A stretch of DNA of 64,000 nucleotides from Patescibacteria group bacterium (GTDB lineage: Bacteria; Patescibacteriota; Patescibacteriia; UBA11705; DATKZF01). The DNA lies in assembly GCA_049319825.1 (NCBI GenBank), contig JBMORT010000006.1, positions 299,641 to 363,640 of the forward strand, read 5' to 3'. Positions 2,012 through 58,798 of this stretch are shown here, piece by piece. The translations under genes were made by a program, and so were the position numbers. Position 1 is the stretch's first letter. Each line of letters begins with the position of its first letter. Below the pieces are notes generated by a model. That model was not told the origin of the DNA. It ran no database searches and saw only the letters and a list, made by a program, of their open reading frames with translations.

Positions 2012-2084
2012 CGCGGGCGGCACCGCCCTGTAGGAACACAAAATTTTGTGTTCCTACAACGGACAGACGTCCGTGCCCGCGCCG

Positions 2085-23322: not shown

Positions 23323-23521
23323 ATCAAATAGCAAAGCTCGCCCCGAGCAACGTCGAGGGGATTAAATGGCAAAGCAACCTCTCGACTACGCTCGAGGCAG
23401 GAAGAATAAAGAGCAAATATTTTTGTTTTTTTGTTTTAAACTTATTTCTATTGCTTTTCTCTTTGCTCTTTTATCTTTGATCTAAATAAAAAACCGCCAA
23501 AGTGTTTGGCGGGATTGAAAT

Positions 23522-25015: not shown

Positions 25016-25376
25016 CGGCGGTTGCTCCTTTTGTGAAAGAACCGTTAAAGAATCCTGATTTGTGCGAGATCAAATCGTGAATCTTCAGCGGTCATTTCAG
25101 GAATAATAAACATTAACAGAAATTTAATATTTTGTCAATTTTCTGTTTGACATTCTCTACTTATATTATACCAAAAAATTGTGAATTATATGAATAGTGG
25201 CTGAAAATATTAAGGATTTATCAGATGAATTATAGAATAATAAATGTTTTTTCAGAATTTGTGTCAATATTATAGAATTAAAAAACCTACCTAGTTGTTA
25301 ACCGGGTAGGTTTCTCCTTTTTGAAAGGGATTTGCCGCAGAAATTGCGGCTGGGAAGGAGTTACTGGGGGCGGAAA

Positions 25377-27686
25377 TTACTGACACAGAGTGCCGCTGAT
25401 CCCCAGCTCGACTTCGATCTGGCTTTCCGAGTAAATCGTGAGCCAGTCAAAGTCAGCGGCTGAGGTCACGGGCTGGCCGATTTCGTAATTCGACCACATC
25501 AGCGACCAAAGGACGACTGTCCTTTCCCATGCCGTCGATCCTTCGGTCGACGCGTAGATTTCGTCCAGCGCGGTGATCGGATCAACCTCGCGAAGCGTCG
25601 CGCAGTGATCGACCACGTACCGCGCGCTCGATGTCTCTTCTCCCGTGATGAAAGCTCCGGGACGAAGAGTGACGTTTCCAGTGAGCGCCAAGGGAATCGA
25701 AGCGAGTACTTCGTCGGGGAATTCGTAAACTTGCTGGCAGAGCTCGCCGTTCGGCGACGCGGGGATGCCGTATTCGTCGAGCGGCGAATACCATGATTCG
25801 AGCTCGACATTGGTCGCGAACACGTAGCGGTTCCCGTCGCTGGCGTAGTAGTAGACGTTGCTGAAAGTTCCCTTGATCAGCATACCTGCTTCGGGATGCG
25901 TCGTAGTCAGAAAGCTGTCGCCGCAGCAGCCGCGCCAGCCGATGATGGTGCCGTACGCGGTGTAGACTGGCTCGCAGTAGTGCGGTGGTTCGTCCGCTCC
26001 GCAACCCTCGTCCACGATGCCGTCGCAGTCATCGTCGATCCAGTTATCGCAGTAGTCCTCGGCGTAGCAGAGCGCTGGATCGGGGGAGCAGCGGTAGTTC
26101 ATGACGTCGTGGCTGCATTCCCATCGGCCGTTAACCGGCACGTAGCTGACGATTCCTTCTTCATCGGGAATCGTATTGATTGCGACGCACAGAGATCCGA
26201 CGCTTGGATCGTTCTCGTCTGTTTCACCGTCGCCATCTTCATCGACGCCGTTGCACAGGTCAAGCGGTTCTTGGCACTGTGGCAAATCAGCGCAGTCCGG
26301 GTCGAAGCAACAGACAAGTCCGTCGCCGTCCCCGTCGTTTTGACAATGCCACTCACAGCTCTGCTCGCCGATCGAGTCGCCGTAGCGGCATTCTGTCCAA
26401 ATTCCGTTTTCGCACGTCTGCCAGCCATAGAAGAATTCGCCGGCAGGCATGGCATGGCCGCAATGGCGATCCCAAATCGTTTCGGAAGGATCCACGCACG
26501 GGCAGCCGTCGTCGATGGCGTGATCGTTATCGTTATCCACGCCGTCGCACTCCTCTTCGGCCGGACAATCGACTTGGCAGGTGAAAACATCCTCTGTTGA
26601 ATTGCAGATGCCGTTTCCACAGCACCCTTCGTCGATCTGGCCGTCGCAATTATTATCATCGCCGTCGCAGATTTCTTCCGCGCCGGGGTAAGTCAGGGCG
26701 AAATTGTCGTCGCAGTCGTTGTCGTAGCCCTCGATCCAGTTGATGTAACCCTCTAGAGGAGACAAACAATCGGCCGCTTCGACGTAGCTTTCGGGATCCC
26801 CGTGCCCGTCGCCATCCGCGTCGCGCAGAAAGCGCTGGGTCGGGTACCCTTCATCGGTCAGCCCGTCGCAGTCGTTATCTTTCCCGTCGCAGAATTCGTC
26901 CGCGCCGGGGTGGGTGAAGAAATTGAAATCATCGCAGTCCTCGGGCGGCGAGTAGCCGTCGCTGTCCACGTCGGTCTGCGTGGAAAAGCAGTCGACGCAT
27001 ACGTCGGCTTCGCCCGCTTCGCAGATGCCGTTGCCGCAGACCGCCCCGCAGCCCTCGTCCACCTGGCCGTCGCAGTTGTCGTCGATACCGTGTCCGACGA
27101 CGCCGCAAAGTTCTTCCCGCGCATGGCACTCTTCCAGATCGATGGGAGGACACCTGATGTCTCCCAGTATGCAGGTGAGAACTCCCGGGACAGGGACGAA
27201 ATCGAGCAGCGCGAAGCAGTCTTGGCCGGCGATAGGGTCACTCTCGTCCGTCTGGCCGTCGCAGTTGTCATCTACCCCGTTGCAGTACTCGACAGCCAGC
27301 GGGTTGATGTTGAAATCATCATCGTTGCAGTCGCCGTCGAAAGGCGTGAACCCGTCGTTGTCCTCGTCAAAGTCGGGGACCGGACAGCCCTCGTCCGTGA
27401 CGCCGTCGTTGTCGTTGTCGATCTCGTCGCAGATTTCGGGGTTGTCGTAGGGCAGGGGGACGCATCCCGCGCCGATAAGGGTCGTGCCCTCGTCGCAGTA
27501 GATGATCGGTGCGGGATTGCCGTCGAGCACGCAGACTCCGTTGATTTCGACAGTGCCCGGCCCGCATTCGAGGCTGGCGGCGTCGGTCTCGATGACCTGG
27601 CGCGTGGAAGCGCCGTCGCCGCAATTGAAGTTGAAACAGAAAAACCAGAACAGAGACACGAAAAACGAAAAGCGATGCAGTCTCAT
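25377..27686 (-). CDS. Large secreted Cys-rich protein with many MopE-like CDGxDNDCDGxxDEG repeats
   Basis: Signal peptide; more than 8 repeat units; C-terminal domain (YCEPVYTAYGTIIGWRGCCG...) paralogous to the 23522 protein; ~65% GC. Confidence 0.7.
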   Translation of the reverse strand: MRLHRFSFFVSLFWFFCFNFNCGDGASTRQVIETDAASLECGPGTVEINGVCVLDGNPAPIIYCDEGTTLIGAGCVPLPYDNPEICDEIDNDNDGVTDEGCPVPDFDEDNDGFTPFDGDCNDDDFNINPLAVEYCNGVDDNCDGQTDESDPIAGQDCFALLDFVPVPGVLTCILGDIRCPPIDLEECHAREELCGVVGHGIDDNCDGQVDEGCGAVCGNGICEAGEADVCVDCFSTQTDVDSDGYSPPEDCDDFNFFTHPGADEFCDGKDNDCDGLTDEGYPTQRFLRDADGDGHGDPESYVEAADCLSPLEGYINWIEGYDNDCDDNFALTYPGAEEICDGDDNNCDGQIDEGCCGNGICNSTEDVFTCQVDCPAEEECDGVDNDNDHAIDDGCPCVDPSETIWDRHCGHAMPAGEFFYGWQTCENGIWTECRYGDSIGEQSCEWHCQNDGDGDGLVCCFDPDCADLPQCQEPLDLCNGVDEDGDGETDENDPSVGSLCVAINTIPDEEGIVSYVPVNGRWECSHDVMNYRCSPDPALCYAEDYCDNWIDDDCDGIVDEGCGADEPPHYCEPVYTAYGTIIGWRGCCGDSFLTTTHPEAGMLIKGTFSNVYYYASDGNRYVFATNVELESWYSPLDEYGIPASPNGELCQQVYEFPDEVLASIPLALTGNVTLRPGAFITGEETSSARYVVDHCATLREVDPITALDEIYASTEGSTAWERTVVLWSLMWSNYEIGQPVTSAADFDWLTIYSESQIEVELGISGTLCQ

Positions 27687-27796
27687 GCTTCTCTCCTTGT
27701 GCCCGCGCCGCGGGCGTTTTTTTGAGTTTGATTTTCAATTGTCGAAGAACTTTATTCCCGGCTTTGCCCAATACCTACACTAGGCAGAACCCGAAA

Positions 27797-27824
27797 CCCA
27801 ACATCGCCGTGGCGAGTTGGGGGG
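27797..27824 (-). terminator. CCCAAC...GTTGGG hairpin downstream of the 27844 gene
   Basis: cccaacatcgccgtggcgagttgggggg; same stem family as 28323, 28643, 28692, 29615, 30305, 31070. Confidence 0.5.
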
Positions 27825-27843
27825 ACTGAGTTGCTTAAGTTGG

Positions 27844-28233
27844 TCAGGCCGCTTTTTTCACCGAAGCTTCTAGTGAACCAGCAGCGCCTTCCAAATGTCG
27901 CAATACAGACAGTGACGGCATTTGCATTACGTGAGAATTTGTCGGATCTGGAAAAAATGCAAATCGTTCAGTGCTTGTCGATGTCCGTAGATCTGTATGT
28001 TCATCGGCCGCGCGGCGCAGCATGATGCCCATCTGGCCGTGAAGTAAAAAGAAAATCGATCCGTAGATACAGCCGAGAAAGATCATCGAAGAGAGAATGA
28101 CGAAAAGCATGGCAAAGTCATACTCTGGCACTTTGAGCGCGATGTGGACGATAAGGCAAATCATAACGAGCATCATGATGCTCGAAGTGATAAGAATGAA
28201 TAAAGCGATTGTCCACTTGGCGCGATCCGGCAT
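27844..28233 (-). CDS. Small polytopic membrane protein (hypothetical)
   Basis: 3 TM helices; lies within the GC-rich island. Confidence 0.4.
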   Translation of the reverse strand: MPDRAKWTIALFILITSSIMMLVMICLIVHIALKVPEYDFAMLFVILSSMIFLGCIYGSIFFLLHGQMGIMLRRAADEHTDLRTSTSTERFAFFPDPTNSHVMQMPSLSVLRHLEGAAGSLEASVKKAA

Positions 28234-28309
28234 TGATCCTCCTTGGTATCTCCCGTTTGAGTGCTTGTCGCGGGAAGAATTTCCCGGATTTATTGATTAA
28301 TGTTAATCA

Positions 28310-28365
28310 GCAAATCTGGAAGCCCAACAAATGAGAGTTGGGCGAAAGGGTGGGAAATTAGGCGG
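28310..28365 (-). terminator. Conserved CCCAAC-N-GTTGGG hairpin element (GGAAGCCCAACA.GTGAGAGTTGGGCGAAAGGGTGGGAAA)
   Basis: Three near-identical copies (28310-28365, 28635-28680, 31055-31110), each immediately 3' of a minus-strand gene. Confidence 0.5.
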
Positions 28366-28366
28366 G

Positions 28367-28576
28367 TTAGTAGCCGGGGACGAACGATCCGTCCACCGGC
28401 CGTCCGTTGATGAAGATCTTGGTCCAATCCATCCCTGGATCGTCGAAGCTCGAGCAAAGGAGCTCGACTTTCTCTCCTCGAGCCAGGGCTACCTCGACCT
28501 CCCTGAAGACTTTCGGCTGAAGGAACAGCCGGTGGTTGTCGAGGTCGTCCTTTGTGAACGGTTGCAGGTAGGGCAT
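28367..28576 (-). CDS. Small hypothetical protein (69 aa)
   Basis: ORF bounded by the conserved hairpin elements; low confidence. Confidence 0.3.
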   Translation of the reverse strand: MPYLQPFTKDDLDNHRLFLQPKVFREVEVALARGEKVELLCSSFDDPGMDWTKIFINGRPVDGSFVPGY

Positions 28577-28691
28577 TTAAACCTCCTTGGTTAATGAATT
28601 TCCCGGCTCTGCTTAGTATCATTTACCAAACAAAGCTGGGAGCCCAATAAGTGAGAGTTGGGCGAAAAGGTGGGAAAGAGCGGTGAGGTTA

Positions 28692-28729
28692 GGCCGGCCC
28701 CCAACACGCAAAGTTTTGCGGTTGGGGGG
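28692..28729 (-). terminator. GGCCCCCAAC...GTTGGGGGG hairpin downstream of the lipoprotein gene
   Basis: Imperfect inverted repeat; a copy at 29615-29649 and a related one at 30305-30337. Confidence 0.5.
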
Positions 28730-28743
28730 AGAGGGGAGAATGA

Positions 28744-29526
28744 CTACGGTGATGGACATCCCTCATCGGTCTGGCCGTCGCAGTCGTTGTCGATGCCGTC
28801 GCAGGCCTCGCCCAGCGGCCCACAAGTGCCGCAGGCGTTGAGCAGTCCTTCGTCGACGTCGCCGTCGCAGTCATTGTCAACGCCGTCGCAGACCTCCGCG
28901 GGCACCGGCCCGCACAGACCGCACGCGTTGAGCAGATACTCGTCCACGTCGCCGTCGCAGTCATTGTCCGCGCCGTCGCAGACTTCCGTTTCCGGCATAA
29001 CTCCATTGCAGTCAGACCATTCCCAGTTCACGCAGGTCTGTGTCCCGATCACGCATTCACCTGTCTCCACACCGCACACGATTGTTTCGCCGTTCCTGCA
29101 AAGGCATCCTTCATCCGCGACGCCATTGCAATTGTTGTCAAAGCCGTCGCAGAGTTCCTCGCTTGGCTTGGACGCGCCAATGCACCTGTCAAACCACGCG
29201 CCATTAACACAAACTTGCGTTCCTGCCATTCGTACGTTCGTATCCGTGCAGCAGGGGCGAGTACTCTCGATGACGCATTCGCAACCCTCATCGATGAGTC
29301 CGTCGCAGTCGTTGTCCAGCGTGTCGCAGATTTCTTCTTTGGGCTTTCTGCCGTCGCAGTCGGACCAGCCGCCGTTGACGCAGGTCTGCTTGCCGATGGA
29401 ACACTCGCCCAGCTCAGTACCACATTTCTGCGTCGCGCCGTCTTTGCACGGTGGCGCGCTGGCCGCCATCGATTGTTGTTCGCTGATCAAAAACACCAGA
29501 GCGAAAATCGCCATCAGCTTCTTCAT
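28744..29526 (-). CDS. Lipoprotein/secreted protein with MopE-like CDGxDNDCDGxxDEG repeats
   Basis: MKKLMAIFALVFLI signal preceded by a GGAGG Shine-Dalgarno site; the annotated upstream extension is the conserved leader; 6 Cys-repeat units. Confidence 0.65.
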   Translation of the reverse strand: MKKLMAIFALVFLISEQQSMAASAPPCKDGATQKCGTELGECSIGKQTCVNGGWSDCDGRKPKEEICDTLDNDCDGLIDEGCECVIESTRPCCTDTNVRMAGTQVCVNGAWFDRCIGASKPSEELCDGFDNNCNGVADEGCLCRNGETIVCGVETGECVIGTQTCVNWEWSDCNGVMPETEVCDGADNDCDGDVDEYLLNACGLCGPVPAEVCDGVDNDCDGDVDEGLLNACGTCGPLGEACDGIDNDCDGQTDEGCPSP

Positions 29527-29615
29527 TGACGTTCTCCTCCCCCGATTCCTCGGGAGTTTTGGGTTTGAAAGAACTCTTTCCGAACTTTGCTTGCTAAAAT
29601 TACCGAGCAAAGTTC
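29527..29615 (-). promoter_or_regulatory. Conserved structured 5' leader (12-bp stem CCGAACTTTGCT/AGCAAAGTTCGG, then GGGGGAGG Shine-Dalgarno)
   Basis: ~85% identical to 30219-30305, which lies upstream of the paralogous lipoprotein gene. Confidence 0.5.
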
Positions 29616-29657
29616 GGCCCCCAACATGCAAAGTTTTGCGGTTGGGGGGAGAGGGGA

Positions 29658-30218
29658 CTAATGCGAGCAGCCCTCATCGATACGGTCGTCGCAGTCGTCA
29701 TCGATGCTGTTGCCGCAAACTTCTTCCGGCACGGGACCGCACGTCCCGCACGCGTTTAAAAGTCCTTCATCGACGTTGCCGTCGCAATCGTTGTCTTTGC
29801 CATCGCAGATCTCGACGCTCCGGCCGACGTGGGTTCCGCAACAAGCGCTCCACAGGCCTTGTCCGTTCCCAATGTCAATAATGTCAATGCAGACCTGAGT
29901 TGCGAACACGTTCTCCTCGCCGCACTGACGAGTTTCGCCGATGGTACACTGGCAGCCTTCGTCGATCGCGCCGTCGCAGTTGTTGTCGAGGCTGTCGCAG
30001 CTTTCTTTGACCGGACCGCGGTACTTTCCACCGCAATCAGTCCATGTGCCCATGACGCAGACCTGATGGCCAGGGATGCACGCCCCAAGATCCTTGCCGC
30101 ACGGGCGAGTCTCGCCTTCGGCGCACAAGATGATCTTCTGCGGCTCGGGCATAAGCTGTTCTTTCTTACAACCTCCGAAAGCCACAACCAGCACAAGCGA
30201 GAGCATCAGCTTCTTCAT
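29658..30218 (-). CDS. Lipoprotein with MopE-like Cys repeats (paralogue of the 28744 gene)
   Basis: MKKLMLSLVLVVAFGGC lipobox; CDGKDNDCDGNVDEG units. Confidence 0.65.
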   Translation of the reverse strand: MKKLMLSLVLVVAFGGCKKEQLMPEPQKIILCAEGETRPCGKDLGACIPGHQVCVMGTWTDCGGKYRGPVKESCDSLDNNCDGAIDEGCQCTIGETRQCGEENVFATQVCIDIIDIGNGQGLWSACCGTHVGRSVEICDGKDNDCDGNVDEGLLNACGTCGPVPEEVCGNSIDDDCDDRIDEGCSH

Positions 30219-30305
30219 CTGATTTTTCCTCCCCCGATTTTTCGGGAGTTTTGGGTTTGAAAGAACTCTTTCCGAACTTTGCCAAGTAGAATTTACCGAG
30301 CAAAG
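30219..30305 (-). promoter_or_regulatory. Second copy of the conserved structured 5' leader
   Basis: Same stem-loop and Shine-Dalgarno as 29527-29615. Confidence 0.5.
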
Positions 30306-30401
30306 TTCGGCCCCCAACTTTTTTGAAGAGTTGGGGGAAGATTTTGTGCATTTGCCGCGGATGCGCGGCTGTGGGAAAGTAAATGGAAGAGAAGGAAGAT
30401 G

Positions 30402-30986
30402 CTAGGAGGCCGCCTGGATCGTCGTGTCCTCGCTGATGAGCAGGCGGCGCGGGTGGCGGAGGAACTGCTTGGGCTGGCGGGTGTAGCGCTTCCAGCCGCG
30501 GGGGAACAGACGCCACTCGTAGCGGCGGATCCGGTAGCAGTCGAGCTCGCTCCACAGCGCTCGGCGCATGCCGATCTGCCGCGGGGAGCACTGGATGCGG
30601 AAGCCGTTGATCGGCTCCGGCTCGCGCTGGGGCAGCGGGGTGGGGGGCTCGATCGGGGTGGCGGCGGCCTTGAGCGGGGCGTCGAACACCTCGCACCAGG
30701 CCTCGTAGTCGCTGTCGTCCTCGGTGTCGGCGTAGAACTCCTCGGCCGCCGGCTCGAAGGCGTCGTCGATCTCGACCTCGTCCAGGCGATCGCTGTCGAT
30801 CATGTCGATCAGCTCGTCCTCGACGTCCCCGTACTCGGCCAAGGTGGTCAGCGGCGCGCGCCAGACGCCATCGGAGCCGCGGATGCCGAAGAACCGCGGG
30901 TGGCAGTCTTCGACCTCCGGGTCGCCATCGACGAAACGGAACGCCTTGTCGAGCTCGTTGTAGCCCAGGATCCTGAGAGCGCTCAT
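30402..30986 (-). CDS. Acidic hypothetical protein (island gene)
   Basis: 194-aa ORF, D/E-rich, GC-rich codon usage. Confidence 0.4.
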   Translation of the reverse strand: MSALRILGYNELDKAFRFVDGDPEVEDCHPRFFGIRGSDGVWRAPLTTLAEYGDVEDELIDMIDSDRLDEVEIDDAFEPAAEEFYADTEDDSDYEAWCEVFDAPLKAAATPIEPPTPLPQREPEPINGFRIQCSPRQIGMRRALWSELDCYRIRRYEWRLFPRGWKRYTRQPKQFLRHPRRLLISEDTTIQAAS

Positions 30987-31116
30987 GGCATTTCCTTTCC
31001 TAAAAAAAATTATTGTGATTGTACTACTTCCCTGATCTGCCGATTATTTCTACTCGGCAAATCTGGAAGCCCAACAGGTGTAGTTGGGCGGTAGGGTGGG
31101 AAAGAACAGCGGGGAG

Positions 31117-31434
31117 CTAGAGCCCGAGAATGGCGGCGCGGCGGCCGGTGGCGCGGGTGGGGCCTTCGTCGCCCCAGGCGGTGAGGATGAGATCGCATTC
31201 CCTCTCGAGAGCTTCGCGGACGAGGTCCTCTTTCTCGGCGGGGGTGGGCGGCGGGGGATCCCAGTCGAAGGAGTCACCGCACCGGCACATTTCGTAGGAA
31301 AAGCCGCAATCCGGACAGTAGTCGGGAGCGGGCGTGGGCGCCTCCGGCTCGGGGCAGTCCGGTGCGTCCAGGTAGTCGTAGCACGAATCGGACTGAGAGG
31401 CGGGACAGTCGCAACAATTGACCTTGCAATCCAT
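31117..31434 (-). CDS. Small acidic Cys-rich protein (CCDC...CPDC...CRC)
   Basis: 105-aa ORF with 10 Cys and Pro-rich linkers; followed 3' by a conserved hairpin. Confidence 0.4.
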   Translation of the reverse strand: MDCKVNCCDCPASQSDSCYDYLDAPDCPEPEAPTPAPDYCPDCGFSYEMCRCGDSFDWDPPPPTPAEKEDLVREALERECDLILTAWGDEGPTRATGRRAAILGL

Positions 31435-31737
31435 TGGTTTCCTCCTTGAAAAAAGCCCTTAAAAAGGGCGGTTTTCCCCTCCATGTTTTTCTAAAATATC
31501 ATTTTATTATAGCATAAATATGAATAAAAATCAAGCCAAAAAGCCAAATATTGGCTTAATTTAGGGGAGTTTTACGCATTGTGAGGATCAAAAAAGCAAG
31601 AGAGAAAAAGGAGGTTGCGTTTGCTCGGAGAAGGCGGGTGTCCGGATGGCTTTTTTCTGGATTCCTGCCTGCCTGCCGGCCGGCAGGCAGGCCTGCGCAG
31701 GAATGACCGAATAATGGGCAGAGAGACTATCAGAAAG

Positions 31738-31915
31738 GGATTTCTCCACTCCGCTCCCCCTCGGCTTGGCTCGGGGTCGCTCCGGTCGAAATGACGAAAG
31801 GGGGTCTGGCGATGTTCCGTGAAGGTGTTCGGGGCTTGTAAAAAGGGATTTCTCCACTCGGTCTCGCTACGCTCGACCTCGGTCGAAATGACCGAAAGGG
31901 CGCGGCGAGGGTATA
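31738..31915. repeat. Two tandem solo copies of the GIY-YIG-associated repeat (AGGGATTTCTCCAC...CCCTCG.C...GTCGAAATGAC)
   Basis: Matches the inverted repeats flanking the GIY-YIG gene at 53320-53890; related cores at 18970-19000 and 23375-23400. Confidence 0.7.
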
Positions 31916-32369: not shown

Positions 32370-32544
32370 ATACTATTTTTTAAAATTTAATTACAAATAA
32401 TTACAAATATTACGAATATTTTTTAGGATTTAATTACAAATAATTACAAATATTACGAAGATTTTACAGGATTTAATTACAAATAATTACGAATTATTAC
32501 AAATATTATTAATATAATTTTTGTTACAAATAATTACAAATGAA
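32370..32544. repeat. AT-rich tandem repeat array (TAATTACAAA / ATTACGAA units)
   Basis: More than 10 units; similar TTACAAAT arrays at 10310-10375, 16370-16390 and 32930-33000. Confidence 0.7.
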
Positions 32545-32928
32545 ATGGAAGAAGACGAATTAATTTACGGGGAATTGAGTTATAAACTGATGGGAGTAAT
32601 TTTTAATGTTCATAATGAATTGGGCGGCGGAATGAAAGAAAAATATTATCAGCGAGCGATTGAAAAAGCATTGGATTAAAAAAACATATCTTACAAGAGT
32701 CAGATGATGATTCCAATTAATTATAAAACTCATAATATTGGTTGTTATCGTCCTGATTTAATAATCGAAAATAAAATCGTGTTGGAAATAAAAGTAGGTT
32801 TCGGGTTTTCAAAAGCAGATTTGAATCAGCTCCATCAATATTTAATCAAAACGGGCTTGAAATTGGGAATATTAGTTGTCTTTTCAAAGAAGAAAGTAAT
32901 TCACACGAGAGTCTTAAATCTTTATTGA
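32545..32928 (+). pseudogene. GxxExxY family (PD-(D/E)xK-like) gene interrupted by an in-frame TAA at ~32677
   Basis: N-terminal 44 aa ending GGGMKEKYYQRAIEKALD*, then the same frame resumes as ...NYKTHNIGCYRPDLIIENKIVLEIK...LKLGILVVF, which is the family's C-terminal half. Confidence 0.55.
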
Positions 32929-45613: not shown

Positions 45614-45689
45614 GCTGGCTTGTAGGCGAATAAAATAACGCAATATAACGCAAATATTAACGCAATTTCTGCGTTTTTTTATTGGCGGC

Positions 45690-45795
45690 GGCCGCATGCG
45701 CGTCGCGCATGTCCCGTAGGGACAGGTCGCGACCTGTCCCTACGGGCGGGAACGCGCGCGTTCCCGCGGGCCGCCGCATTTTTTGCGTTTTTGCG
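45690..45795. repeat. Cluster of GC-rich perfect palindromes (CCCGTAGGGACAGGTCGC|GACCTGTCCCTACGGG; GGGAACGCGCGCGTTCCC) flanked by AACGCAA repeats
   Basis: Direct reading of the inverted repeats. Confidence 0.8.
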
Positions 45796-45823
45796 TTAAA
45801 TTTATTACAATAAACACGCCAAT

Positions 45824-46930
45824 ATGAATTCCGCCGATTACATCGCCGCCCTGTCAATAGCCTTTTTTATCAGCTTGATATTAACGGCTGTAGTCAAATG
45901 GCTGGCATTTAAATTAAAAATAGTTGACAAGCCCGGTAATAATCCGAAAAAGATTCATAAAAAAGCCACTCCCAAAATGGGCGGGCTTGCTTTATTTCTG
46001 ACATTCAATATTGTTGTTTTGGTTTATACTTACATGAGCCATGAGCTGACCGGCGCGCACATTATGCAAAAATACGTCTGGGGTATGTTGATCGGCGGAT
46101 TATTTTTAATGATTGGCGGAATTTTAGATGATAAGTTTGACTTGAAACCAAAGTATCAGTTCATCTGGCCGATGCTGGCAGTTTTATCTGTCGGCATCAG
46201 CGGCATCGGCATCGACTGGATCACCAATCCGTTCGGAGACGGACAGTGGCATTTGGCCAAATATCAAATTGACCTGCTTTGGTTTCACGGACTGCCGTAT
46301 CGAATAACTTTTCTGGCTGACATATTTACTTTTATCTGGCTGATGGGCATGATGTACACAACCAAGATTATGGACGGGCTCGACGGTCTGGTAACAGGCA
46401 TCACCAGCATCGGCGCTTTGTTTATTTTCGCCGTGTCATTGATGAATCAGGATATTCAGAGTGATGTGGCGCTTTTAGCAATAATTTTCGTGGGCGTATG
46501 CCTGGGATTTTTGGTTTTTAATTTCAATCCGGCAGCAATATTTCTCGGCGAAGGCGGCAGCACCTACACCGGATTTATTCTGGGAACATTATCAATAATT
46601 TCCGGCAGCAAAGTGGCAGTCACTTTAATGCTGATGAGCCTGCCGATTCTTGACGTGGCCTGGACTATTATTCGCCGGAAAATGGATAAGCAGTCGCTGC
46701 GAATCGCTGACCGGAAGCATCTGCACCATCGCCTGCTAGATGCCGGATTAAGCGCCAAGAAAGCCTGCTTGTTTTTGTGGGCAATCAGCGCGGTTTTGGC
46801 CGGTGTCGGGCTTTATCTGCAGCAGCAGGGGCTGGCGCTGTTCATTTTAGGCATGGGCGCATTGCTGGTTTTTATGCTGACAACAGCTTATCTATATAAG
46901 AAACGTAAAGATTTGCAAAAAATTGAATAG
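45824..46930 (+). CDS. Glycosyltransferase family 4 phospho-sugar transferase (WecA/TagO-like; MraY not excluded)
   Basis: KKATPKMGG, IDDKFDL and DRKHLHHRLL motifs; 10-11 TM helices. Confidence 0.7.
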   Translation: MNSADYIAALSIAFFISLILTAVVKWLAFKLKIVDKPGNNPKKIHKKATPKMGGLALFLTFNIVVLVYTYMSHELTGAHIMQKYVWGMLIGGLFLMIGGILDDKFDLKPKYQFIWPMLAVLSVGISGIGIDWITNPFGDGQWHLAKYQIDLLWFHGLPYRITFLADIFTFIWLMGMMYTTKIMDGLDGLVTGITSIGALFIFAVSLMNQDIQSDVALLAIIFVGVCLGFLVFNFNPAAIFLGEGGSTYTGFILGTLSIISGSKVAVTLMLMSLPILDVAWTIIRRKMDKQSLRIADRKHLHHRLLDAGLSAKKACLFLWAISAVLAGVGLYLQQQGLALFILGMGALLVFMLTTAYLYKKRKDLQKIE

Positions 46931-47167
46931 TTGCAACCCTTGCTTTATTCTTTGATCACGTGGCTGGGTATCGACGCTAATATACTAATTATGCGAATGA
47001 TACTAATTTTGGTTACATTCGTATAATTAGTATTCATTAGTATATTTGCATCGATACTTGACGAAGTCAAAAATATCAGCTATAATTCCGCTTGTATTCA
47101 TAACCCAATTTCCATTTTCCGTTTTCAAACACTAATTTCCAATTTCTAAACAACTAATTTCCAAAAT

Positions 47168-47590
47168 ATGACTATCGCAGTAATCAAAACCGGAGGCAAA
47201 CAGTATAAAGTGGCTCCAGCGCAACAAGTGAAAATCGAAAAAATTGACGGACAAGCCGGAGATAAAGTGTCGTTTAATGCTTTATTGGTTTTCGATGATG
47301 CCGGCAAAGAATTTGATCTGGGCATGCCCAACACATCGAAAAAAGTTGAAGCGGAAATAGTCGAGCAGGGCAGAGCCAAAAAAATTGATGTTATTAAGTT
47401 TAAAAGCAAGGTCAGATACCGCCGGAAATACGGACATCGCCAGCCGTTTACCCAAGTTAAGATTTTGAGCGTCGGCGGCGTGAAAGCTTCCGCGTCCAAG
47501 AAAGAACCGGCTAAGAAACCGGCAGTTAAAAAAGCTACTGTGACAAAAATCGCAGCCAAAGCGCCGGCGAAAAAGACAGCGAAAAAATAA
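47168..47590 (+). CDS. rplU: 50S ribosomal protein L21 with a Lys/Ala-rich C-terminal extension
   Basis: MTIAVIKTGGKQYKV...KFKSKVRYRRKYGHRQPFTQVKI; ~40-aa KKPAxKK tail. Confidence 0.85.
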   Translation: MTIAVIKTGGKQYKVAPAQQVKIEKIDGQAGDKVSFNALLVFDDAGKEFDLGMPNTSKKVEAEIVEQGRAKKIDVIKFKSKVRYRRKYGHRQPFTQVKILSVGGVKASASKKEPAKKPAVKKATVTKIAAKAPAKKTAKK

Positions 47591-47603
47591 TTTCAATAGA
47601 AAA

Positions 47604-47630
47604 GACAGGCCCAAAGGGGTCTGTTTTTGA
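47604..47630 (+). terminator. Intrinsic terminator after rplU
   Basis: GACAGGCCCAAAGGGGTCTG hairpin followed by TTTTT. Confidence 0.6.
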
Positions 47631-47650
47631 TTATGGAAGCGAAGTACACT

Positions 47651-47679
47651 TGACAAGTACTCGTTTTTTTGATATAATT
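47651..47679 (+). promoter_or_regulatory. Consensus sigma70 promoter: TTGACA, 17-nt spacer, extended -10 TGATATAAT
   Basis: Exact match to -35 and -10 consensus with an ideal spacer, 37 nt upstream of a strong AAGGGAGGAG Shine-Dalgarno site. Confidence 0.65.
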
Positions 47680-47715
47680 AAAAAATTCCGGTGAACGGAA
47701 AGGGAGGAGACGTCC

Positions 47716-47907
47716 ATGCCTAACGAAACAAAGGAAAAAAAAGTCCATCTCTTTGGCTGTACCGCCGGCAGTGCTTATCGCGCTGGGATGTGCGACAGCA
47801 ACTGTCGAGGTTGCTATTATTGGGATGGAACTGAGCGCTGGGTCACCTTGGAAGAACTTAATATGATGAATGTGGCAGATCCGGTTGAGGATTTTGAGGA
47901 CTGTTAA
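47716..47907 (+). CDS. Small Cys-rich protein (63 aa; C-x10-C-x3-C-x2-C...C)
   Basis: ORF directly behind the consensus promoter and Shine-Dalgarno site, followed by a hairpin+T-tract terminator at 47955-47983. Confidence 0.5.
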   Translation: MPNETKEKKVHLFGCTAGSAYRAGMCDSNCRGCYYWDGTERWVTLEELNMMNVADPVEDFEDC

Positions 47908-47954
47908 AAGTCAAGTCATGCAACCGATTAAAAAACACCTGTCGGTTTAAGTCG

Positions 47955-47983
47955 AGCGCTTCGTAAAACGAGGTGCTTTTTGA
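47955..47983 (+). terminator. Hairpin (with G-U pairs) plus a T-tract after the small Cys-rich ORF
   Basis: AGCGCTTCGTAAAACGAGGTGCTTTTT. Confidence 0.45.
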
Positions 47984-47989
47984 TTAACA

Positions 47990-48235
47990 AAACCCGCGCA
48001 AACATGTTGCGTGGGTTTTTTATCGGCCGCGGGCCAGGCGCCGGTAACAACGAATTCGAATTCGTTGTTACCGGGCCGGACAGAACCGTTACCGGCGCCG
48101 GCGTGGGAACAGGGCGTTTCGCGGGAACAGATGGTAGGAACAGGGCAGCGCCCTGTTCCTACCATCTGTTCCCACGCGCCCGCCGGAGGCGGGCGGCCGC
48201 GGCCCGATTGACAGAAAGAATTTTGTGTTATATGA
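47990..48235. repeat. GC-rich long perfect palindromes (GGTAACAACGAATTCGAATTCGTTGTTACC; GGGAACAGATGGTAGGAACAGGGC...GCCCTGTTCCTACCATCTGTTCCC)
   Basis: Direct reading: 15-bp and ~24-bp perfect stems; a GTAGGAACA motif shared with the palindrome at 2030-2060. Confidence 0.8.
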
Positions 48236-48269
48236 TCTTGAAATCCTTTGCGGACAAAGGAGGTGATCG

Positions 48270-48551
48270 ATGGTTGAACTCCATGAATTTCGAACTGTTG
48301 TTGAAATCCATTTTAATGTGGCAGATAGGATTATTGAATTGTGGCACACCAGGTCGCCAAACGGTGAAAAGCAAAAGTTGCCCAGAGATTCGGGTGTTTA
48401 TAACTGGCCAATGACAGTTGAGGTAATTGAATTCGCCCTGGAAATTTTTGCGGCCATCACTCATCAGCGATTTATTGAGCTACGGCCTGGTAATCCTGAC
48501 CGTCTGTCGGACTGGGTGATCTATCGCCGTGCGGATTTGTTCAAAAAATAG
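48270..48551 (+). CDS. Hypothetical 93-aa protein
   Basis: ORF with an AAAGGAGGTGA Shine-Dalgarno site; followed by the terminator CACTTCGTCAAACGAAGTGTTTTT (48552-48576). Confidence 0.4.
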   Translation: MVELHEFRTVVEIHFNVADRIIELWHTRSPNGEKQKLPRDSGVYNWPMTVEVIEFALEIFAAITHQRFIELRPGNPDRLSDWVIYRRADLFKK

Positions 48552-48576
48552 CACTTCGTCAAACGAAGTGTTTTTA
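48552..48576 (+). terminator. Intrinsic terminator
   Basis: 7-bp perfect stem CACTTCG/CGAAGTG followed by TTTTT. Confidence 0.6.
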
Positions 48577-48611
48577 AATTATGAAAAATACGACTGAAAA
48601 TCGGGCGGAAA

Positions 48612-48646
48612 TTATTTCACCTCCTGCCTCCCCTTGAGCGCGTTGG
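48612..48646. repeat. 35-bp direct repeat (copy of the recR 3' end) flanking the DUF1704-like gene; second copy at 50077-50111
   Basis: ttatttcacctcctgcctccccttgagcgcgtt vs ttatttcacctcctgcctccccttaagcgcgtt. Confidence 0.8.
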
Positions 48647-50005
48647 TTAGGCGGTTTCTTGCGGCTGCTCCAATTCCTTGTCGGTTATTCCCAGCATATT
48701 TAAAATCCAAATGTGCCGCGGGTTGGCCGGATCGTATTTGCCAATGCTAAAGCGCGACATTTCTTCCGGCTTATTTTTTACGACCGCCCATGTTTCGATA
48801 TTTCCTTCGCGGTAAATAATATCTTTTGTAAAACACACTCCTGGGGTTTTGCAATCAGTGCCTCTGAATGTGCGAACGGAGCGGTTCCATGCGCTTGTCT
48901 GAGACGCGGCCAGAGCTTCTTCCTTCTTTTTGCCTTGCAGCAAATTATTTAGCCGATAATATTTTTCCAAAATTTCATAAACTTGACGAAAATCCCTTGG
49001 CTTTCCGTCAAGTCCCATTGCTAATCCGATTGCTAGATGGCCGTCTAGTCCAGCATAATCTTTAAGCTCGTTAGATAAAGCTTGTTCTCTCATGGTCGCA
49101 ACGCCTTCTTCGCCCTTTTCATATCTATCCAAGCCTAGCCCAAGCAGTTTTAATTTGCTTCTTTCTCCTTTAACTCTGCGGGTGACATGCGTGCCGATCT
49201 CGTGGGCGATCAATGTCCTTAATTTATCGAAAAGCATTTTTCTTGATTCAGGCACTTTTATTGTTTTTATTTCTTGATCAACGCTGATGCCCGTTTTGCT
49301 GCTTTTATCAATAACTACCGACCAGCCCTCAACGCGTAAATTTGCCAGCGCTTGGGTAAACATTTCTTTGATATCTTCGGCTACTAACTCTCCAGCCTTG
49401 TATGAAATATTGACCAAATCTCCCATCTCTTTCAGCGTCAATTCTTTAGCCAGCTGGCGGGTTTTTGCTTCCGGCAGCTCTTGCATTTTCACTTTCGGCA
49501 AGTTGTTTGGCAAAGCGGCCAGCAATTCTTGCGCGGTTTGTTTTATTTCTTCATTTTCTGATTCCAGCGCCTTTTCCGCGGTTTTTCTGATATTTTGTAT
49601 CGTATATGCAAACACGTCAGGCGAAGGCGTCCCATAGACAAATTCCGAGTAACCTTGAAAGCGGCGCATATCGTGATTAGCTGTCGCTTTCGCAATTCGA
49701 AGTTCTGCGATTTTTTCGTTCAATCGCCAGCGGTACACTTGGCTGATTACCTCGTTTTGTTCCAAGGCCTTGATGTCCTTGCGAAGCTTGAGAAGCATTT
49801 GTTCTCGTTCGTTTAGTTTGTCAATGTCGATTTTTGGATAATCCAATTCTGGATTTTCAATTTCACCTGCTAAAAATTTCTTTTTTTGTTCTTCTCGGTA
49901 TTCTTTATCGCCATCCAAATATTCGTAGGCTTGAAAAGCCGCATGTTTTTCAAAAGTATCATACCATTGCTGGTCAAGGGGAACGGGTTGTTCGAAGTTT
50001 TTCAT
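48647..50005 (-). CDS. DUF1704/QEGLA-family-like HExxH protein (putative carboxypeptidase-like)
   Basis: HEIGTHV...REQALS arrangement resembles the HExxH...QEGLA family; 452 aa. Confidence 0.5.
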   Translation of the reverse strand: MKNFEQPVPLDQQWYDTFEKHAAFQAYEYLDGDKEYREEQKKKFLAGEIENPELDYPKIDIDKLNEREQMLLKLRKDIKALEQNEVISQVYRWRLNEKIAELRIAKATANHDMRRFQGYSEFVYGTPSPDVFAYTIQNIRKTAEKALESENEEIKQTAQELLAALPNNLPKVKMQELPEAKTRQLAKELTLKEMGDLVNISYKAGELVAEDIKEMFTQALANLRVEGWSVVIDKSSKTGISVDQEIKTIKVPESRKMLFDKLRTLIAHEIGTHVTRRVKGERSKLKLLGLGLDRYEKGEEGVATMREQALSNELKDYAGLDGHLAIGLAMGLDGKPRDFRQVYEILEKYYRLNNLLQGKKKEEALAASQTSAWNRSVRTFRGTDCKTPGVCFTKDIIYREGNIETWAVVKNKPEEMSRFSIGKYDPANPRHIWILNMLGITDKELEQPQETA

Positions 50006-50071
50006 AGAGTTTATAAATTAAATGTTTTATGCTTTTTTTTGCTTTGCATTTTTAGTTTTGCGTTTTGCACT

Positions 50072-50677
50072 TTATTTCACCTCCTGCCTCCCCTTAAGCG
50101 CGTTCGTTAAAGTCGTTTCATCAGTATATTCCAAATCGCTGCCCATGGCCAGGCCGCGGGCGAGTTTGGTGAATTTTAGGTTCAGCGGCTTGAAAAGCTT
50201 GACCAGGTATAGGGAAGTGGCTTCACCCTGGATGTCCGGATTCAGCGCCAGAATTATTTCTGAAAATTTTTCTTTTTTCACTCTGTCAATTAATTTTTGG
50301 ATGTTTAATTTTTCAGGCGTGATGCCTTCGAGCGGATTGATTTGCCCGCCGAGCACATGATAAAGCCCGCGATATTCTTTGGTTGATTCGATTACTCCCA
50401 AATCTTGTACATCTTCGACAATGCATAAAAGCGATCGGTCGCGGCGGCTGTCAGCGCAGATGTCGCATTCTTTTTTCAGGCCGGAAAAATTGCCGCAAGT
50501 CTGGCAGAAGCTGAGGTTTTTCTGCAGATTAAGTACGCTGCTGGCGAATTGATTTAAGAATTCTGGGCTTTGTCTGAGTAAATAAAAAACGAACTTCTCA
50601 GAGGTCTTTCGGCCGATGCCGGGAAGCTGGTTGAATTTGTCGATGAGGTTTTCGATTTCAGAAGGGTAAATTACCAT
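50072..50677 (-). CDS. recR: Recombination protein RecR
   Basis: HhH (LPGIGRKTSEKF), C4 zinc finger CQTCGN...CDIC, Toprim. Confidence 0.9.
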   Translation of the reverse strand: MVIYPSEIENLIDKFNQLPGIGRKTSEKFVFYLLRQSPEFLNQFASSVLNLQKNLSFCQTCGNFSGLKKECDICADSRRDRSLLCIVEDVQDLGVIESTKEYRGLYHVLGGQINPLEGITPEKLNIQKLIDRVKKEKFSEIILALNPDIQGEATSLYLVKLFKPLNLKFTKLARGLAMGSDLEYTDETTLTNALKGRQEVK

Positions 50678-52473: not shown

Positions 52474-52593
52474 AATTGGTGATTAGAAATTGGAAAATGG
52501 AAATTAGGGCACTGGAAATTGGAAAATTGTGCCTTCATTTTATCTAAAAAAAACTTGCGAGGCAAGTTGAAAAGGTGTGGGGAATGGGGATTT

Positions 52594-52622
52594 GACAATG
52601 TTTGACTTTGTGATACAATTAA
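52594..52622 (+). promoter_or_regulatory. Sigma70-like promoter TTGACA-N16-TGATACAAT
   Basis: Near-consensus -35 and extended -10, upstream of a strong GGAAGGGAGAAGAGGAG Shine-Dalgarno site and the ATG at 52666. Confidence 0.45.
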
Positions 52623-52665
52623 GCATTCCTACGTCTGCATGGAAGGGAGAAGAGGAGAAAAGGCC

Positions 52666-53262
52666 ATGGCAAAACCGTGTGGAAATGAGATTTTCAGTAT
52701 AATTGTAAATGCTGTCCTCGAGGCGGGCGGCAATGATGAGGATTTGCGGAGAATTCTCAAAGAGCCGGAATTGGCAAAGAAGATTGCCGAACTGATCGTC
52801 CAAAAAAGAAATCCTACCACTGAAGTCTTTAGAGTAGCAGTTGACTACAGCATGTCGCTGGATGAGATGATCGCTGCCGGTCACTACGACTGGATGAACA
52901 GCGACATCACTGCCAAGCACTTCCCAGTCTCGGGTGGAGGCCAGCGAGAGGTTGAATTGGAACTGGTCCATTTGAACAGAGAGGCCAGCACAGCGTATGT
53001 TCTGGAAGAGTTGGAGCGACGAGGCCTACGCCCCGCCAAGATCGCGGAACTGCTGGCTTTGGGTGCCAATCATCCTGAGCTTCAGAAGCAATTCCCGATC
53101 ATTGCTTTCGGCTCGGTTTGGCGCGATCCAAGCGGTCTTCACTACCTGCCTTTTCTGCGTGGGCGAAGTGACGAGCGCGACCTGGACCTCTACGACTACG
53201 ACTTTCACTGGCCTTTCAAGTGTCGGTTCCTGGCCGTCCGCGAGGAGGCGGATAGTCAGTAA
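52666..53262 (+). CDS. Hypothetical protein
   Basis: ORF behind a promoter-like site and a strong Shine-Dalgarno site; no recognised motifs. Confidence 0.4.
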   Translation: MAKPCGNEIFSIIVNAVLEAGGNDEDLRRILKEPELAKKIAELIVQKRNPTTEVFRVAVDYSMSLDEMIAAGHYDWMNSDITAKHFPVSGGGQREVELELVHLNREASTAYVLEELERRGLRPAKIAELLALGANHPELQKQFPIIAFGSVWRDPSGLHYLPFLRGRSDERDLDLYDYDFHWPFKCRFLAVREEADSQ

Positions 53263-53319: not shown

Positions 53320-53890
53320 ATTTCGATCGGAGGGCCGACAAAAGAGGCCCTGAGTGCAGAAATTTTTTTAATACCTTCCTCCACTATCGGTCATTTCGAC
53401 CAAGCCCGGAGGGCGCGTGGAGAAATCCCTTTTTAAAAACCCTCAGCCAGATCTTTCCATCCCGGATTATCCATTGAAATAAGTATTTCTTTTTTATCTC
53501 TTCTCCATCGTTTGATTTGTTTTTCCCGGGCGATGGCATCCGTGGGGTTATCAAAGACTTCGTAGTGAACTAATTTGTGCCATTGGTATCTTTTGGTGAA
53601 ACATTCATTGATATCATTTTTATGTTCGCTAACTCTTCTTTCAATATCATTTGTCATGCCGATGTATAGTGTTCCGCTTTCGCTGGCCATGATGTAGGTG
53701 TAGTAGTCGTTGGGCATAGTTTTTGAAAATATTATTACGAAGGGATTTCTCCATTCCGCTCCCCCTCGACTCCGCTCGGGGTCGCTCCAGTCGAAATGAC
53801 CGGTTGGGACTTCGCTCCGCTCAGTCGGCGACCTGTCCTGAGCCGTGTCGAGCGAATGCAGGAATCCAGGAAAAATCATCTGGACACCTG
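53320..53890 (-). mobile_element. GIY-YIG mini-element: gene flanked by inverted repeats (CGGTCATTTCGA...GGAGAAATCCCT / AGGGATTTCTCC...TCGAAATGACCG)
   Basis: Inverted repeats at 53325-53432 and 53741-53830; solo copies at 31738-31915. Confidence 0.6.
53433..53717 (-). CDS. GIY-YIG nuclease family protein (paralogue of 20936-21226)
   Basis: MPNDYYTYIMASESGTLYIGMTNDIERRVSEHK; the upstream ORF extension lies in the inverted repeat. Confidence 0.7.
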   Translation of the reverse strand: MPNDYYTYIMASESGTLYIGMTNDIERRVSEHKNDINECFTKRYQWHKLVHYEVFDNPTDAIAREKQIKRWRRDKKEILISMDNPGWKDLAEGF

Positions 53891-56640: not shown

Positions 56641-56692
56641 ACTACTGCCTACCTGCCTGCCGGTCAGGCAGGCTGCCTCTTGCCTACTGCCT
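56641..56692. repeat. CTACTGCC/CCTGCCTGCCGGTCAGGCAGG palindromic repeat (copy)
   Basis: See 3999-4052. Confidence 0.8.
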
Positions 56693-58684: not shown

Positions 58685-58798
58685 GCTACTGCCTACCTGC
58701 CTGCCGGTCAGGCAGGCTGCCGCTGGCCTGCCAGCCGCCCTGTCCACCGAAGCCGCAGCGAAGGTGGAAGCTGTTGCGAAGGCTGGCCTACTGCCTAA
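58685..58798. repeat. CTACTGCC/CCTGCCTGCCGGTCAGGCAGG palindromic repeat (extended copy)
   Basis: See 3999-4052. Confidence 0.8.

Follow-up and report, generated by a model that had tools for sequence, protein, structure and literature searches.

In most bacteria, the gene of the ribosomal protein L21 resides in the ribosomal operon rplU-(ysxB)-rpmA. In phages, self-expressing units consisting of a promoter, a gene and a terminator are called morons and, with respect to mRNA decay in model bacteria, hairpins close to the 5'-end and strong Shine-Dalgarno sites are both known to stabilize transcripts. In the hyperplastic regions of T4-like phages, genes are shuffled via repeated terminator/promoter modules termed PeSL, for promoter-early stem-loop (PMC4122927), a superfamily of GTAG-tagged REP palindromes is served by RAYT transposases of the Y1 HUH type (PMC3733652) and TMCP carboxypeptidases, whose metal-binding motifs are HExxxH and EEG, shorten acidic tails at the C-terminus of their targets by single residues (PMC10499314). 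Here, we describe a locus that resembles each of these systems in part. It is found in a 64 kb stretch of a Patescibacteria metagenome-assembled genome (MAG), referred to as the window, whose positions are used as coordinates throughout, and it contains two small genes encoding proteins of 63 and 93 residues, which are separated by a nest of palindromes and located between rplU and recR. As the best explanation, which we regard as reasonably probable, we propose that these are two autonomous small-gene cassettes which, together with REP-like palindromes, form part of a 2.48 kb insertion.

Like the rplU-rpmA operon, the locus begins with rplU under its own promoter, but it differs in an arrangement found in Patescibacteria, where rplU is monocistronic, convergent with recR and without rpmA nearby. 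This organization became apparent from a comparison of 80 rplU loci from species-representative genomes. In 62 loci, mostly from other phyla, rpmA is found near rplU and in 61 of these it is located directly downstream. Conversely, 17 loci contain no adjacent rpmA and no L27 was detected within 4 kb of rplU in any of them even at E<=1; 11 of the 17 are labelled Patescibacteria. Similarly, tblastn searches with L27 from E. coli and B. subtilis gave no match in the 64 kb window. In an initial annotation of the window, which was made by a model from the sequence, the gene rpmA was expected to follow rplU. This expectation does not hold, as both genes are unlinked in all 17 loci of the Patescibacteria group, where a convergent recR is the usual right neighbour. 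Judged from gene order, rpmA is thus presumably not missing but unlinked from rplU in this phylum, and its absence should not be flagged at rplU in Patescibacteria.

In the loci of the Patescibacteria group, recR is placed tail-to-tail with rplU and the gap between the two matches amounts to 32-209 nucleotides in seven cases, as illustrated by L009 (rplU 3787-4104, recR 4168-4761) and L002 (rplU 171-488, recR 559-1155). Beyond recR, these relatives contain dnaB and, in at least one locus, also ybaB. The neighbours in the window, which were assigned from family scans and synteny, comprise L21, the glycosyltransferase GT4, a Clp ATPase, a MATCAP-like protein, RecR, YbaB and DnaB, and the order Clp ATPase, GT4, rplU, recR, dnaB is the same in L009. 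In the window, the end of rplU at 47590 and the end of recR at 50072 are 2.48 kb apart and the intervening region accommodates the cassette of the 63-residue protein, the palindrome nest, the cassette of the 93-residue protein and, on the minus strand, a gene coding for a MATCAP-like protein of 452 residues. Compared to the short gap in seven relatives, this distance identifies the region as lineage-specific cargo and, on these comparative grounds, we classify 47591-50071 as a lineage-specific insertion at the conserved rplU-recR junction. The same junction is occupied by other genes in two further Patescibacteria lineages, which in L027 (4380-6616) encode a 63-residue CxxC…CxxC protein, a LexA-like repressor and a DinB-like polymerase and in L024 (3285-5669) a membrane/TPR protein of 794 residues. 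From its content in different genomes, the junction thus looks like a recurrent landing site for lineage-specific cargo.

The locus resides on a contig of 365 kb and its L21 protein has been named by NCBI as L21 of a Patescibacteria MAG. An independent Logan assembly obtained from the same sample is identical to the window across 45717-48070 and its contigs end at the centres of two palindromes, as is usual for de Bruijn assemblies. In look-ups of exact proteins, the population represented by the window was found in a single sample only. The initial annotation had described the genome as AT-rich and laden with repeats; palindromes and repeats are indeed present but, with a GC content of 45.6% in the window, the first attribute is overstated. 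With respect to rplU itself, we noticed that its 140-residue product is extended at the C-terminus by about 38 residues rich in Lys, Ala and Pro (47474-47590; …KKPAVKKATVTKIAAKAPAKKTAKK), compared to open reading frames (ORFs) of 102-105 residues in relatives, and that its leader of about 80 nucleotides contains no recognizable Shine-Dalgarno site.

The gene of the 63-residue protein is preceded by the promoter P1, which is composed of TTGACA at 47650-47655, TG at 47670-47671 and TATAAT at 47673-47678 and which is the sole site in the 64 kb window with a score of 12/12 and an extended -10 element. At a threshold of at least 11/12, the window contains six promoter sites compared to about one in shuffled sequences, and three of the six are the promoters of rplU and of the genes for the 63- and the 93-residue protein. 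The GGAGG of the Shine-Dalgarno site is located 8 nucleotides ahead of the ATG at 47716, and a GGAGG ahead of the start is found in only about 15 ORFs of at least 40 residues in the window. The rarity of such promoters and of the palindromes described below compared to shuffled sequences, and of GGAGG among the ORFs of the window, places these features beyond chance, and the set of signals is thus not a chance pattern. The perfect promoter with its 17-nucleotide spacer and extended -10 element and the Shine-Dalgarno site had both been recognized in the initial annotation, as had a hairpin with a T-tract behind the ORF, where we find two tandem terminators instead of one. Together, promoter, ribosome-binding site, ORF and terminator support the view of a real autonomous unit that appears to be built for high expression.

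The protein encoded by this cassette is hydrophilic, with a pI of 4.45, and contains five cysteines, of which four are clustered (C15-x10-C26-x3-C30-x2-C33) and the fifth, C63, terminates an acidic tail (-VEDFEDC). In an exhaustive HMMER search of 1.84 billion cluster representatives, we identified a single convincing relative, the 65-residue protein P0005, which is 37% identical over the full length (E = 5.2e-4 library-wide; pairwise E = 1e-11). The alignment preserves all five cysteines, F13, R22, a GMCD motif, Y35, an RWV motif and the acidic tail containing DF. At 14 of 23 identical residues the two genes use different codons, including AGT/TCT for Ser and CGC/AGA for Arg, and the nucleotide identity at the codon positions 1/2/3 amounts to 0.53/0.56/0.31. 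Synonymous codon changes and a third position that is least conserved constitute a coding signature, and the frame of the 63-residue protein also ranks at the top of all six in a codon model trained on the long genes of the window. The homology check suggested in the initial annotation has thus revealed conservation in a second genome as expected for a genuine protein gene, and we consider it very probable that the ORF is a real expressed gene. The DNA encoding P0005 is identical in all five loci from five samples in which it is found.

Further members of the family were not recovered. The ORF matched only itself in a word-indexed search of 5.8 billion proteins, a profile built from both members identified no additional one among proteins or viral contigs, and a scan of metagenome contigs recovered P0005 only. 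There was no match of the 63-residue protein in viral contigs, phage genomes and plasmids, none in Pfam and NCBIfam even at E<=1, and none for either member in Pfam, NCBIfam, PHROGs and PADLOC. Two other HMMER matches (P0003 and P0004) are repeat proteins that are aligned via YYWDG-type words and not homologues, and a tblastn match in Photobacterium (E = 0.4) is located inside a 445-residue ORF resembling cytochrome-c peroxidase and was attributed to chance. We have also dismissed the assignment as lipoprotein based on the sequence 'LFGC', as the protein lacks a hydrophobic segment and the homologue contains an Asp at position -1, and as cysteine-sensing leader peptide, since the protein is also conserved where the genomic surroundings are unrelated. 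A cysteine-rich protein family with two known members is a modest novelty.

The invariant C-x10-C-x3-C-x2-C cluster makes the binding of a metal plausible, and we give even chances to the possibility that the four clustered cysteines would coordinate either Zn2+ or an iron-sulfur cluster. With four close invariant cysteines in about 60 residues, the protein resembles small Cys-cluster metalloproteins such as zinc ribbons, rubredoxins and small ferredoxins. Unlike the former two, it contains a single CxxC (C30-x2-C33), no paired knuckles and no match to a family or PDB entry, and it lacks the CX2CX2CX3C spacing of ferredoxins. The segment C26-DSN-C30-RG-C33, which is invariant in both members, shows the CX3CX2C spacing of radical SAM enzymes, but with 63 residues the protein is far below the size of their TIM barrel of about 200 residues or more and does not match a Radical_SAM profile. 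The location of the fifth invariant cysteine as C-terminal residue distinguishes the family from known Cys-cluster proteins. Taken by its sequence features, the product is most likely a strongly expressed small metal-binding protein. If expression follows the signals, it would rank with the proteins that this minimal and host-dependent bacterium produces in largest amounts; in the Candidate Phyla Radiation, proteins of this type are candidates for a role in interaction with the host or in metal/redox handling.

The second cassette follows the same plan. The initial annotation had listed an ORF of 93 residues with its own Shine-Dalgarno site and terminator, which we confirm and to which we add a promoter of its own (P2). 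In the NCBI version, the gene encodes 77 residues (ACOZBH_03785) from an internal start at 48318, 16 codons later. The perfect AAAGGAGG located 6 nucleotides upstream favours the ATG at 48270 as predicted start and thus the longer protein. Three helices were predicted by AlphaFold2, although at low confidence with a mean pLDDT (predicted local distance difference test) of 60. The protein matched no entry in Pfam, NCBIfam, PHROGs, PADLOC, phages and viral contigs and it shows no similarity to the small proteins encoded beside P0005. The two genes do not constitute a type II toxin-antitoxin pair, as they are 360 nucleotides apart with separate promoters and terminators and without a match in Pfam or PADLOC.

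Between the two cassettes, the element E2 forms a nest of palindromes. Its hairpin A (48041-48074) consists of perfect arms of 17 nucleotides without spacer, hairpin B of perfect arms of 24 nucleotides (48123-48173), which extend to 27 nucleotides at 96% across 48120-48176, and hairpin C is located at about 48178-48196. Two GC-rich palindromes with stems of 15 and about 24 bp had been described initially; both exist, but the arms of the first are longer and, with a GC content of 47%, it is not GC-rich. Hairpin B carries GTAGGAACA in inverted orientation at 48134-48142 and 48154-48162, corresponding to a motif GTAGGRACA that occurs six times in the window compared to 0.22 expected, always as inverted pairs 10-11 nucleotides apart. 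These pairs make perfect hairpins of 28-29 bp, whose interiors differ between copies. They are found at three intergenic sites (E0, E1 and E2), where the tagged hairpin is placed alongside other perfect hairpins in a GC clamp. E1 holds three perfect hairpins with GTAGGGACAGGTCG/CGACCTGTCCCTAC in the middle, and E0 contains two small hairpins in addition to GTAGGAACACAAAA/TTTTGTGTTCCTAC inside its clamp. Each of these two elements is followed by a T-run and could thus double as terminator. In total, eight perfect palindromes with arms of at least 10 nucleotides are found in the window compared to 0-3 in shuffled sequences.

With REP and BIME sequences (PMC3733652), the elements have in common that they are short extragenic GTAG palindromes, with core hairpins inside the 20-40 bp size range of REP sequences, between convergent or co-directional genes and that they cluster into composites of several hairpins. 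They differ by interiors that are unlike except for the common GTAGGRACA and by GC-clamp junctions of at least three arms; their copy number is 3 per 64 kb, a count that covers the window alone. In about 600 kb of other loci, an inverted GTAGGRACA pair was found only in the genome of P0005 (L085 8468-8496). Here, the pair is read in-frame (VGTEYYSVPT) as part of a Y1_Tnp-like, or RAYT-like, ORF that neighbours lepA, scores just below the cut-off (E = 1.2e-4, 22.6 bits compared to 23) and contains a GTAGGGACA hairpin, thus tying one copy to a candidate transposase gene. In light of these features, it appears slightly more probable than an even guess that the palindromes are REP-like mobile or ex-mobile elements. 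Their perfect symmetry on both strands, the absence of G-U pairs and the lack of a loop in some of them argue for E2 as an element acting at the level of DNA rather than an RNA gene. To our knowledge, Patescibacteria are not among the phyla surveyed for REP elements, and the GTAGGRACA family with its copy in a RAYT-like gene would suggest REP-type elements in this phylum, again a modest novelty. A second family of palindromic repeats (GCCTGCCTGCCGG…GGCAGGCAGGC) was found at 4010-4053, 56642-56685, 58686-58729 and 31667-31692, and there are further short intergenic repeats such as a tandem array of 43 nucleotides at 32374-32560.

The surroundings of P0005 offer a parallel to the organization into cassettes. 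Its gene occupies the third position in an array of five small orphan genes ahead of lepA, which is located about 1.1 kb downstream of P0005. The five encode proteins of 75, 137, 65, 108 and 97 residues, of which the first two are hydrophobic (L082 300-2340, equivalent to L085 4100-6140 and L087 7760-9800). Each gene of the array is preceded by a terminator, a promoter consisting of TTGACA, a spacer of 16 or 17 nucleotides and TGATATAAA, a leader hairpin and a Shine-Dalgarno module (G)AAAGGA(G/T)G, including AAAGGAGG. These modules are mutually 62-85% identical and found nowhere else in 22 kb. The cassettes of the window show the same layout, with the ATG located about 35 nucleotides behind the -10 element, but at 45-56% identity only the consensus elements are shared.

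A shared layout of this kind invites an interpretation of the cassettes as phage-type morons or as hyperplastic remnants as in T4-like phages, which would be moved by recombination at terminator-promoter modules and whose products would act in counter-defence or in the interaction with the host. This possibility overlaps with our preferred explanation and differs solely on origin and role. The presence of a promoter and a terminator for each gene, the location of orphan genes inside an insertion between conserved genes and the resemblance of the repeated modules around P0005 to PeSL (PMC4122927) would all fit, but the flanking genes are housekeeping genes on a Patescibacteria chromosome with no phage genes nearby, and neither the two proteins nor the DNA or the module matched any phage, viral contig or plasmid. 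Since PADLOC also gave no match and the modules of the window are alike in consensus elements only, which leaves recombination at modules hypothetical, we consider this origin as unlikely. A different role would be assigned to the 63-residue protein if it were a substrate or partner of the MATCAP-like enzyme encoded in the same insertion, which would trim its acidic tail and remove or expose the terminal cysteine in parallel to the processing of tubulin tails. The 452-residue protein matches Pfam MATCAP with E = 5e-23 (82.1 bits compared to a cut-off of 27) and TIGR02421 with E = 1e-20 (74 bits, below the cut-off of 339) and retains the motifs of its eukaryotic relatives, the tail-trimming tubulin carboxypeptidases of the MATCAP/TMCP type, namely HExxxH (HEIGTH, residue 268) and EEG (residue 299), although it is a bacterial protein of the DUF1704/QEGLA branch. 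The initial statement that no modification enzymes are adjacent is thus correct with respect to maturases but overlooks this peptidase. Both members of the small family end in a tail rich in Asp, Glu and Phe with a terminal Cys, as would be suited for such processing. Conversely, the two genes belong to separate convergent transcription units, the last residue is a cysteine and not aromatic, and the adjacency is seen in one genome only, as no MATCAP-like gene was found within 10 kb on either side of lepA in the genome of P0005. A functional relationship between the two proteins appears thus very unlikely.

The initial annotation had also listed a toxin and a precursor of a ribosomally synthesized and post-translationally modified peptide (RiPP) among the potential products, to which a bacteriocin could be added. 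A small cysteine-rich protein with strong expression signals and a CX3CX2C motif might be reconciled with such function, but no radical SAM enzyme, YcaO protein, lanthipeptide synthetase, ABC transporter or immunity gene was found near either family member, which thus both lack a maturase in their vicinity, and for a toxin there was no match to defence systems, phages or plasmids. The protein is hydrophilic and acidic and contains neither a signal peptide nor a lipobox context or a double-glycine leader, and its conservation extends along residues 13-63 with no split into leader and core, as far as this can be judged from two sequences. A RiPP precursor, bacteriocin or secreted toxin is therefore extremely improbable. 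Hardly more credible, and still highly improbable, is a spurious ORF, where the promoter would drive a non-coding RNA, or where the palindromes would be a structured RNA gene or an array of protein operators. Very strong folding is predicted for 47905-48270 (z-score about -12) and the inverted GTAGGRACA 9-mers, at their distance of 10-11 nucleotides, resemble operators for dimers, but two terminators lie between the ORF and the palindromes, whose two-strand symmetry has been described above, and the ORF shows conservation at the protein level with synonymous changes. At the gathering threshold, Rfam gave 0 matches in the window, not even a tRNA, and in a permissive scan of 47560-48650 the best match, a generic miRNA hairpin model, reached 36 bits compared to a threshold of 150. 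The Infernal scan across the palindrome region, where the initial annotation had left room for a non-coding RNA, has thus found no known family.

Several observations weigh against our proposal of two self-contained, strongly expressed cassettes with REP-like palindromes. The strength of the promoters was judged from the consensus alone, and both small ORFs reach 0.16-0.19 bits per codon compared to 0.2-0.5 in housekeeping genes. The family of the 63-residue protein consists of two independent members, so that its conservation derives from one pairwise comparison, the AlphaFold2 model calculated from its single sequence is poor (pLDDT 54) and the sole similarity to a PDB profile, the zinc region of HIV Vif, is insignificant (E = 0.087). 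The 93-residue protein matched only itself in the word-indexed search of 5.8 billion proteins and, as the exhaustive search was not run, its status as orphan is provisional. The two promoter/leader modules of the window are 49% alike and there is no sign of recombination between repeated modules. Finally, there is no RAYT gene in the 64 kb window, and the GTAG at the foot of the stem pairs with CTAC, whereas the tag of classical REP sequences is unpaired.

If the proposal of two autonomous cassettes is correct, each would operate as a separate unit, in which a small ORF is transcribed from a near-consensus sigma-70 promoter, preceded by a leader of about 30 nucleotides with a strong Shine-Dalgarno site and followed by one or two intrinsic terminators. 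With P1, a hairpin close to the inferred 5' end of the leader and a Shine-Dalgarno site that is nearly perfectly complementary to 16S rRNA, the 63-residue protein would be made abundantly, its clustered cysteines might hold a metal centre containing Zn2+ or an iron-sulfur cluster, and the terminal cysteine would be presented on a flexible acidic tail. The palindrome nest would be a present or former selfish hairpin element, which probably blocks read-through between the cassettes and shields the 3' end of the upstream transcript. Overall, the locus is of an ordinary kind, namely a variable junction that harbours accessory orphan genes together with a repeat element, and has no bearing on any long-standing open question. 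As a more far-reaching scenario, which we consider as distinctly unlikely, small-genome Patescibacteria might maintain a pool of self-expressing cassettes, each comprising a consensus promoter, a short leader, a perfect Shine-Dalgarno site, an orphan ORF and a terminator, that shuffle into junctions of convergent genes either by recombination at repeated terminator/promoter modules as in T4 hyperplastic regions or via a machinery related to GTAG hairpins and RAYT-like proteins. One cargo would be a new family of metal- or redox-active mini-proteins, and a MATCAP-like carboxypeptidase would process or use their invariant C-terminal cysteine on its acidic tail. The coordinates of the described features are listed in Table 1.

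Table 1. Features of the rplU-recR locus and of the palindromic elements, in window positions.
Feature	Position	Strand	Basis and remarks
E0, sister of E2, between convergent recG and MPG glycosylase genes	2011-2085	.	z-score -8.7
E1, sister of E2, between Clp ATPase and GT4 genes	45680-45780	.	GC clamp; z-score -8.7
rplU (ribosomal protein L21), 140 residues	47168-47590	+	Pfam Ribosomal_L21p, E = 1.5e-29; left flank of the insertion
Intrinsic terminator of rplU, 12-bp stem followed by T-tract	47601-47630	+	ViennaRNA fold, sequence
Promoter P1 (TTGACA, 17 nucleotides, TGaTATAAT)	47650-47678	+	sigma-70 score 12/12; extended -10
Leader of cassette 1, about 30 nucleotides, with hairpin TTCCG-GTGAA-CGGAA (5 bp, 47686-47700) and Shine-Dalgarno site AAGGGAGGAG (47700-47709)	47685-47715	+	sequence, fold; start inferred
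Gene of the 63-residue acidic protein, ACOZBH_03780	47716-47907	+	one homologue; codon signature; best frame
Two tandem intrinsic terminators (47954-47978 followed by TTTTTG; 47989-48019 followed by TTTTTT)	47954-48024	+	second bidirectional
E2, REP/BIME-like palindrome nest	48024-48206	.	outer GC clamp; fold z-score -11.8
Promoter P2 (TTGACA, 17 nucleotides, TATGAT)	48208-48236	+	11/12; abuts the 3' end of E2; unmentioned in the initial annotation
Leader of cassette 2, hairpin overlapping the first half of the Shine-Dalgarno site AAAGGAGG (48256-48263)	48243-48269	+	sequence, fold
Gene of the 93-residue protein, without Cys	48270-48551	+	AAAGGAGG 6 nucleotides before ATG; best of six frames
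Bidirectional terminator common to the genes of the 93- and the convergent 452-residue protein, overlapping the stop codon of the former	48550-48572	.	called on both strands, fold
MATCAP/TMCP-like (DUF1704, QEGLA) metallocarboxypeptidase, 452 residues	48647-50005	-	right part of the insertion
recR	50072-50677	-	TIGR00615, E = 2.4e-70; right flank of the insertion

Elsewhere in the window, at 52592-53262 on the plus strand, a further near-consensus promoter (TTGACA, 16 nucleotides, TGaTACAAT; 11/12) and a purine-rich Shine-Dalgarno site precede an orphan ORF of 198-207 residues (MAKPCGNE…) without match in Pfam or NCBIfam, which is divergent from dnaB and overlaps with an antisense ORF of 143 residues. 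On the minus strand at 53433-53879, an ORF of 148 residues contains a GIY-YIG nuclease domain (Pfam E = 2.3e-16) and is flanked by copies of a repeat that is also found at 31728-31865. Finally, a GC-rich block at about 23500-31500 contains many copies of a repeat of 56-90 nucleotides (CGTCGCAGTCGTTGTCGATGCCGTCGCAG…) in long minus-strand ORFs, which suggests Cys/Asp-rich repeat proteins, and several genes in this region carry a strong Shine-Dalgarno site AAGGAGG.

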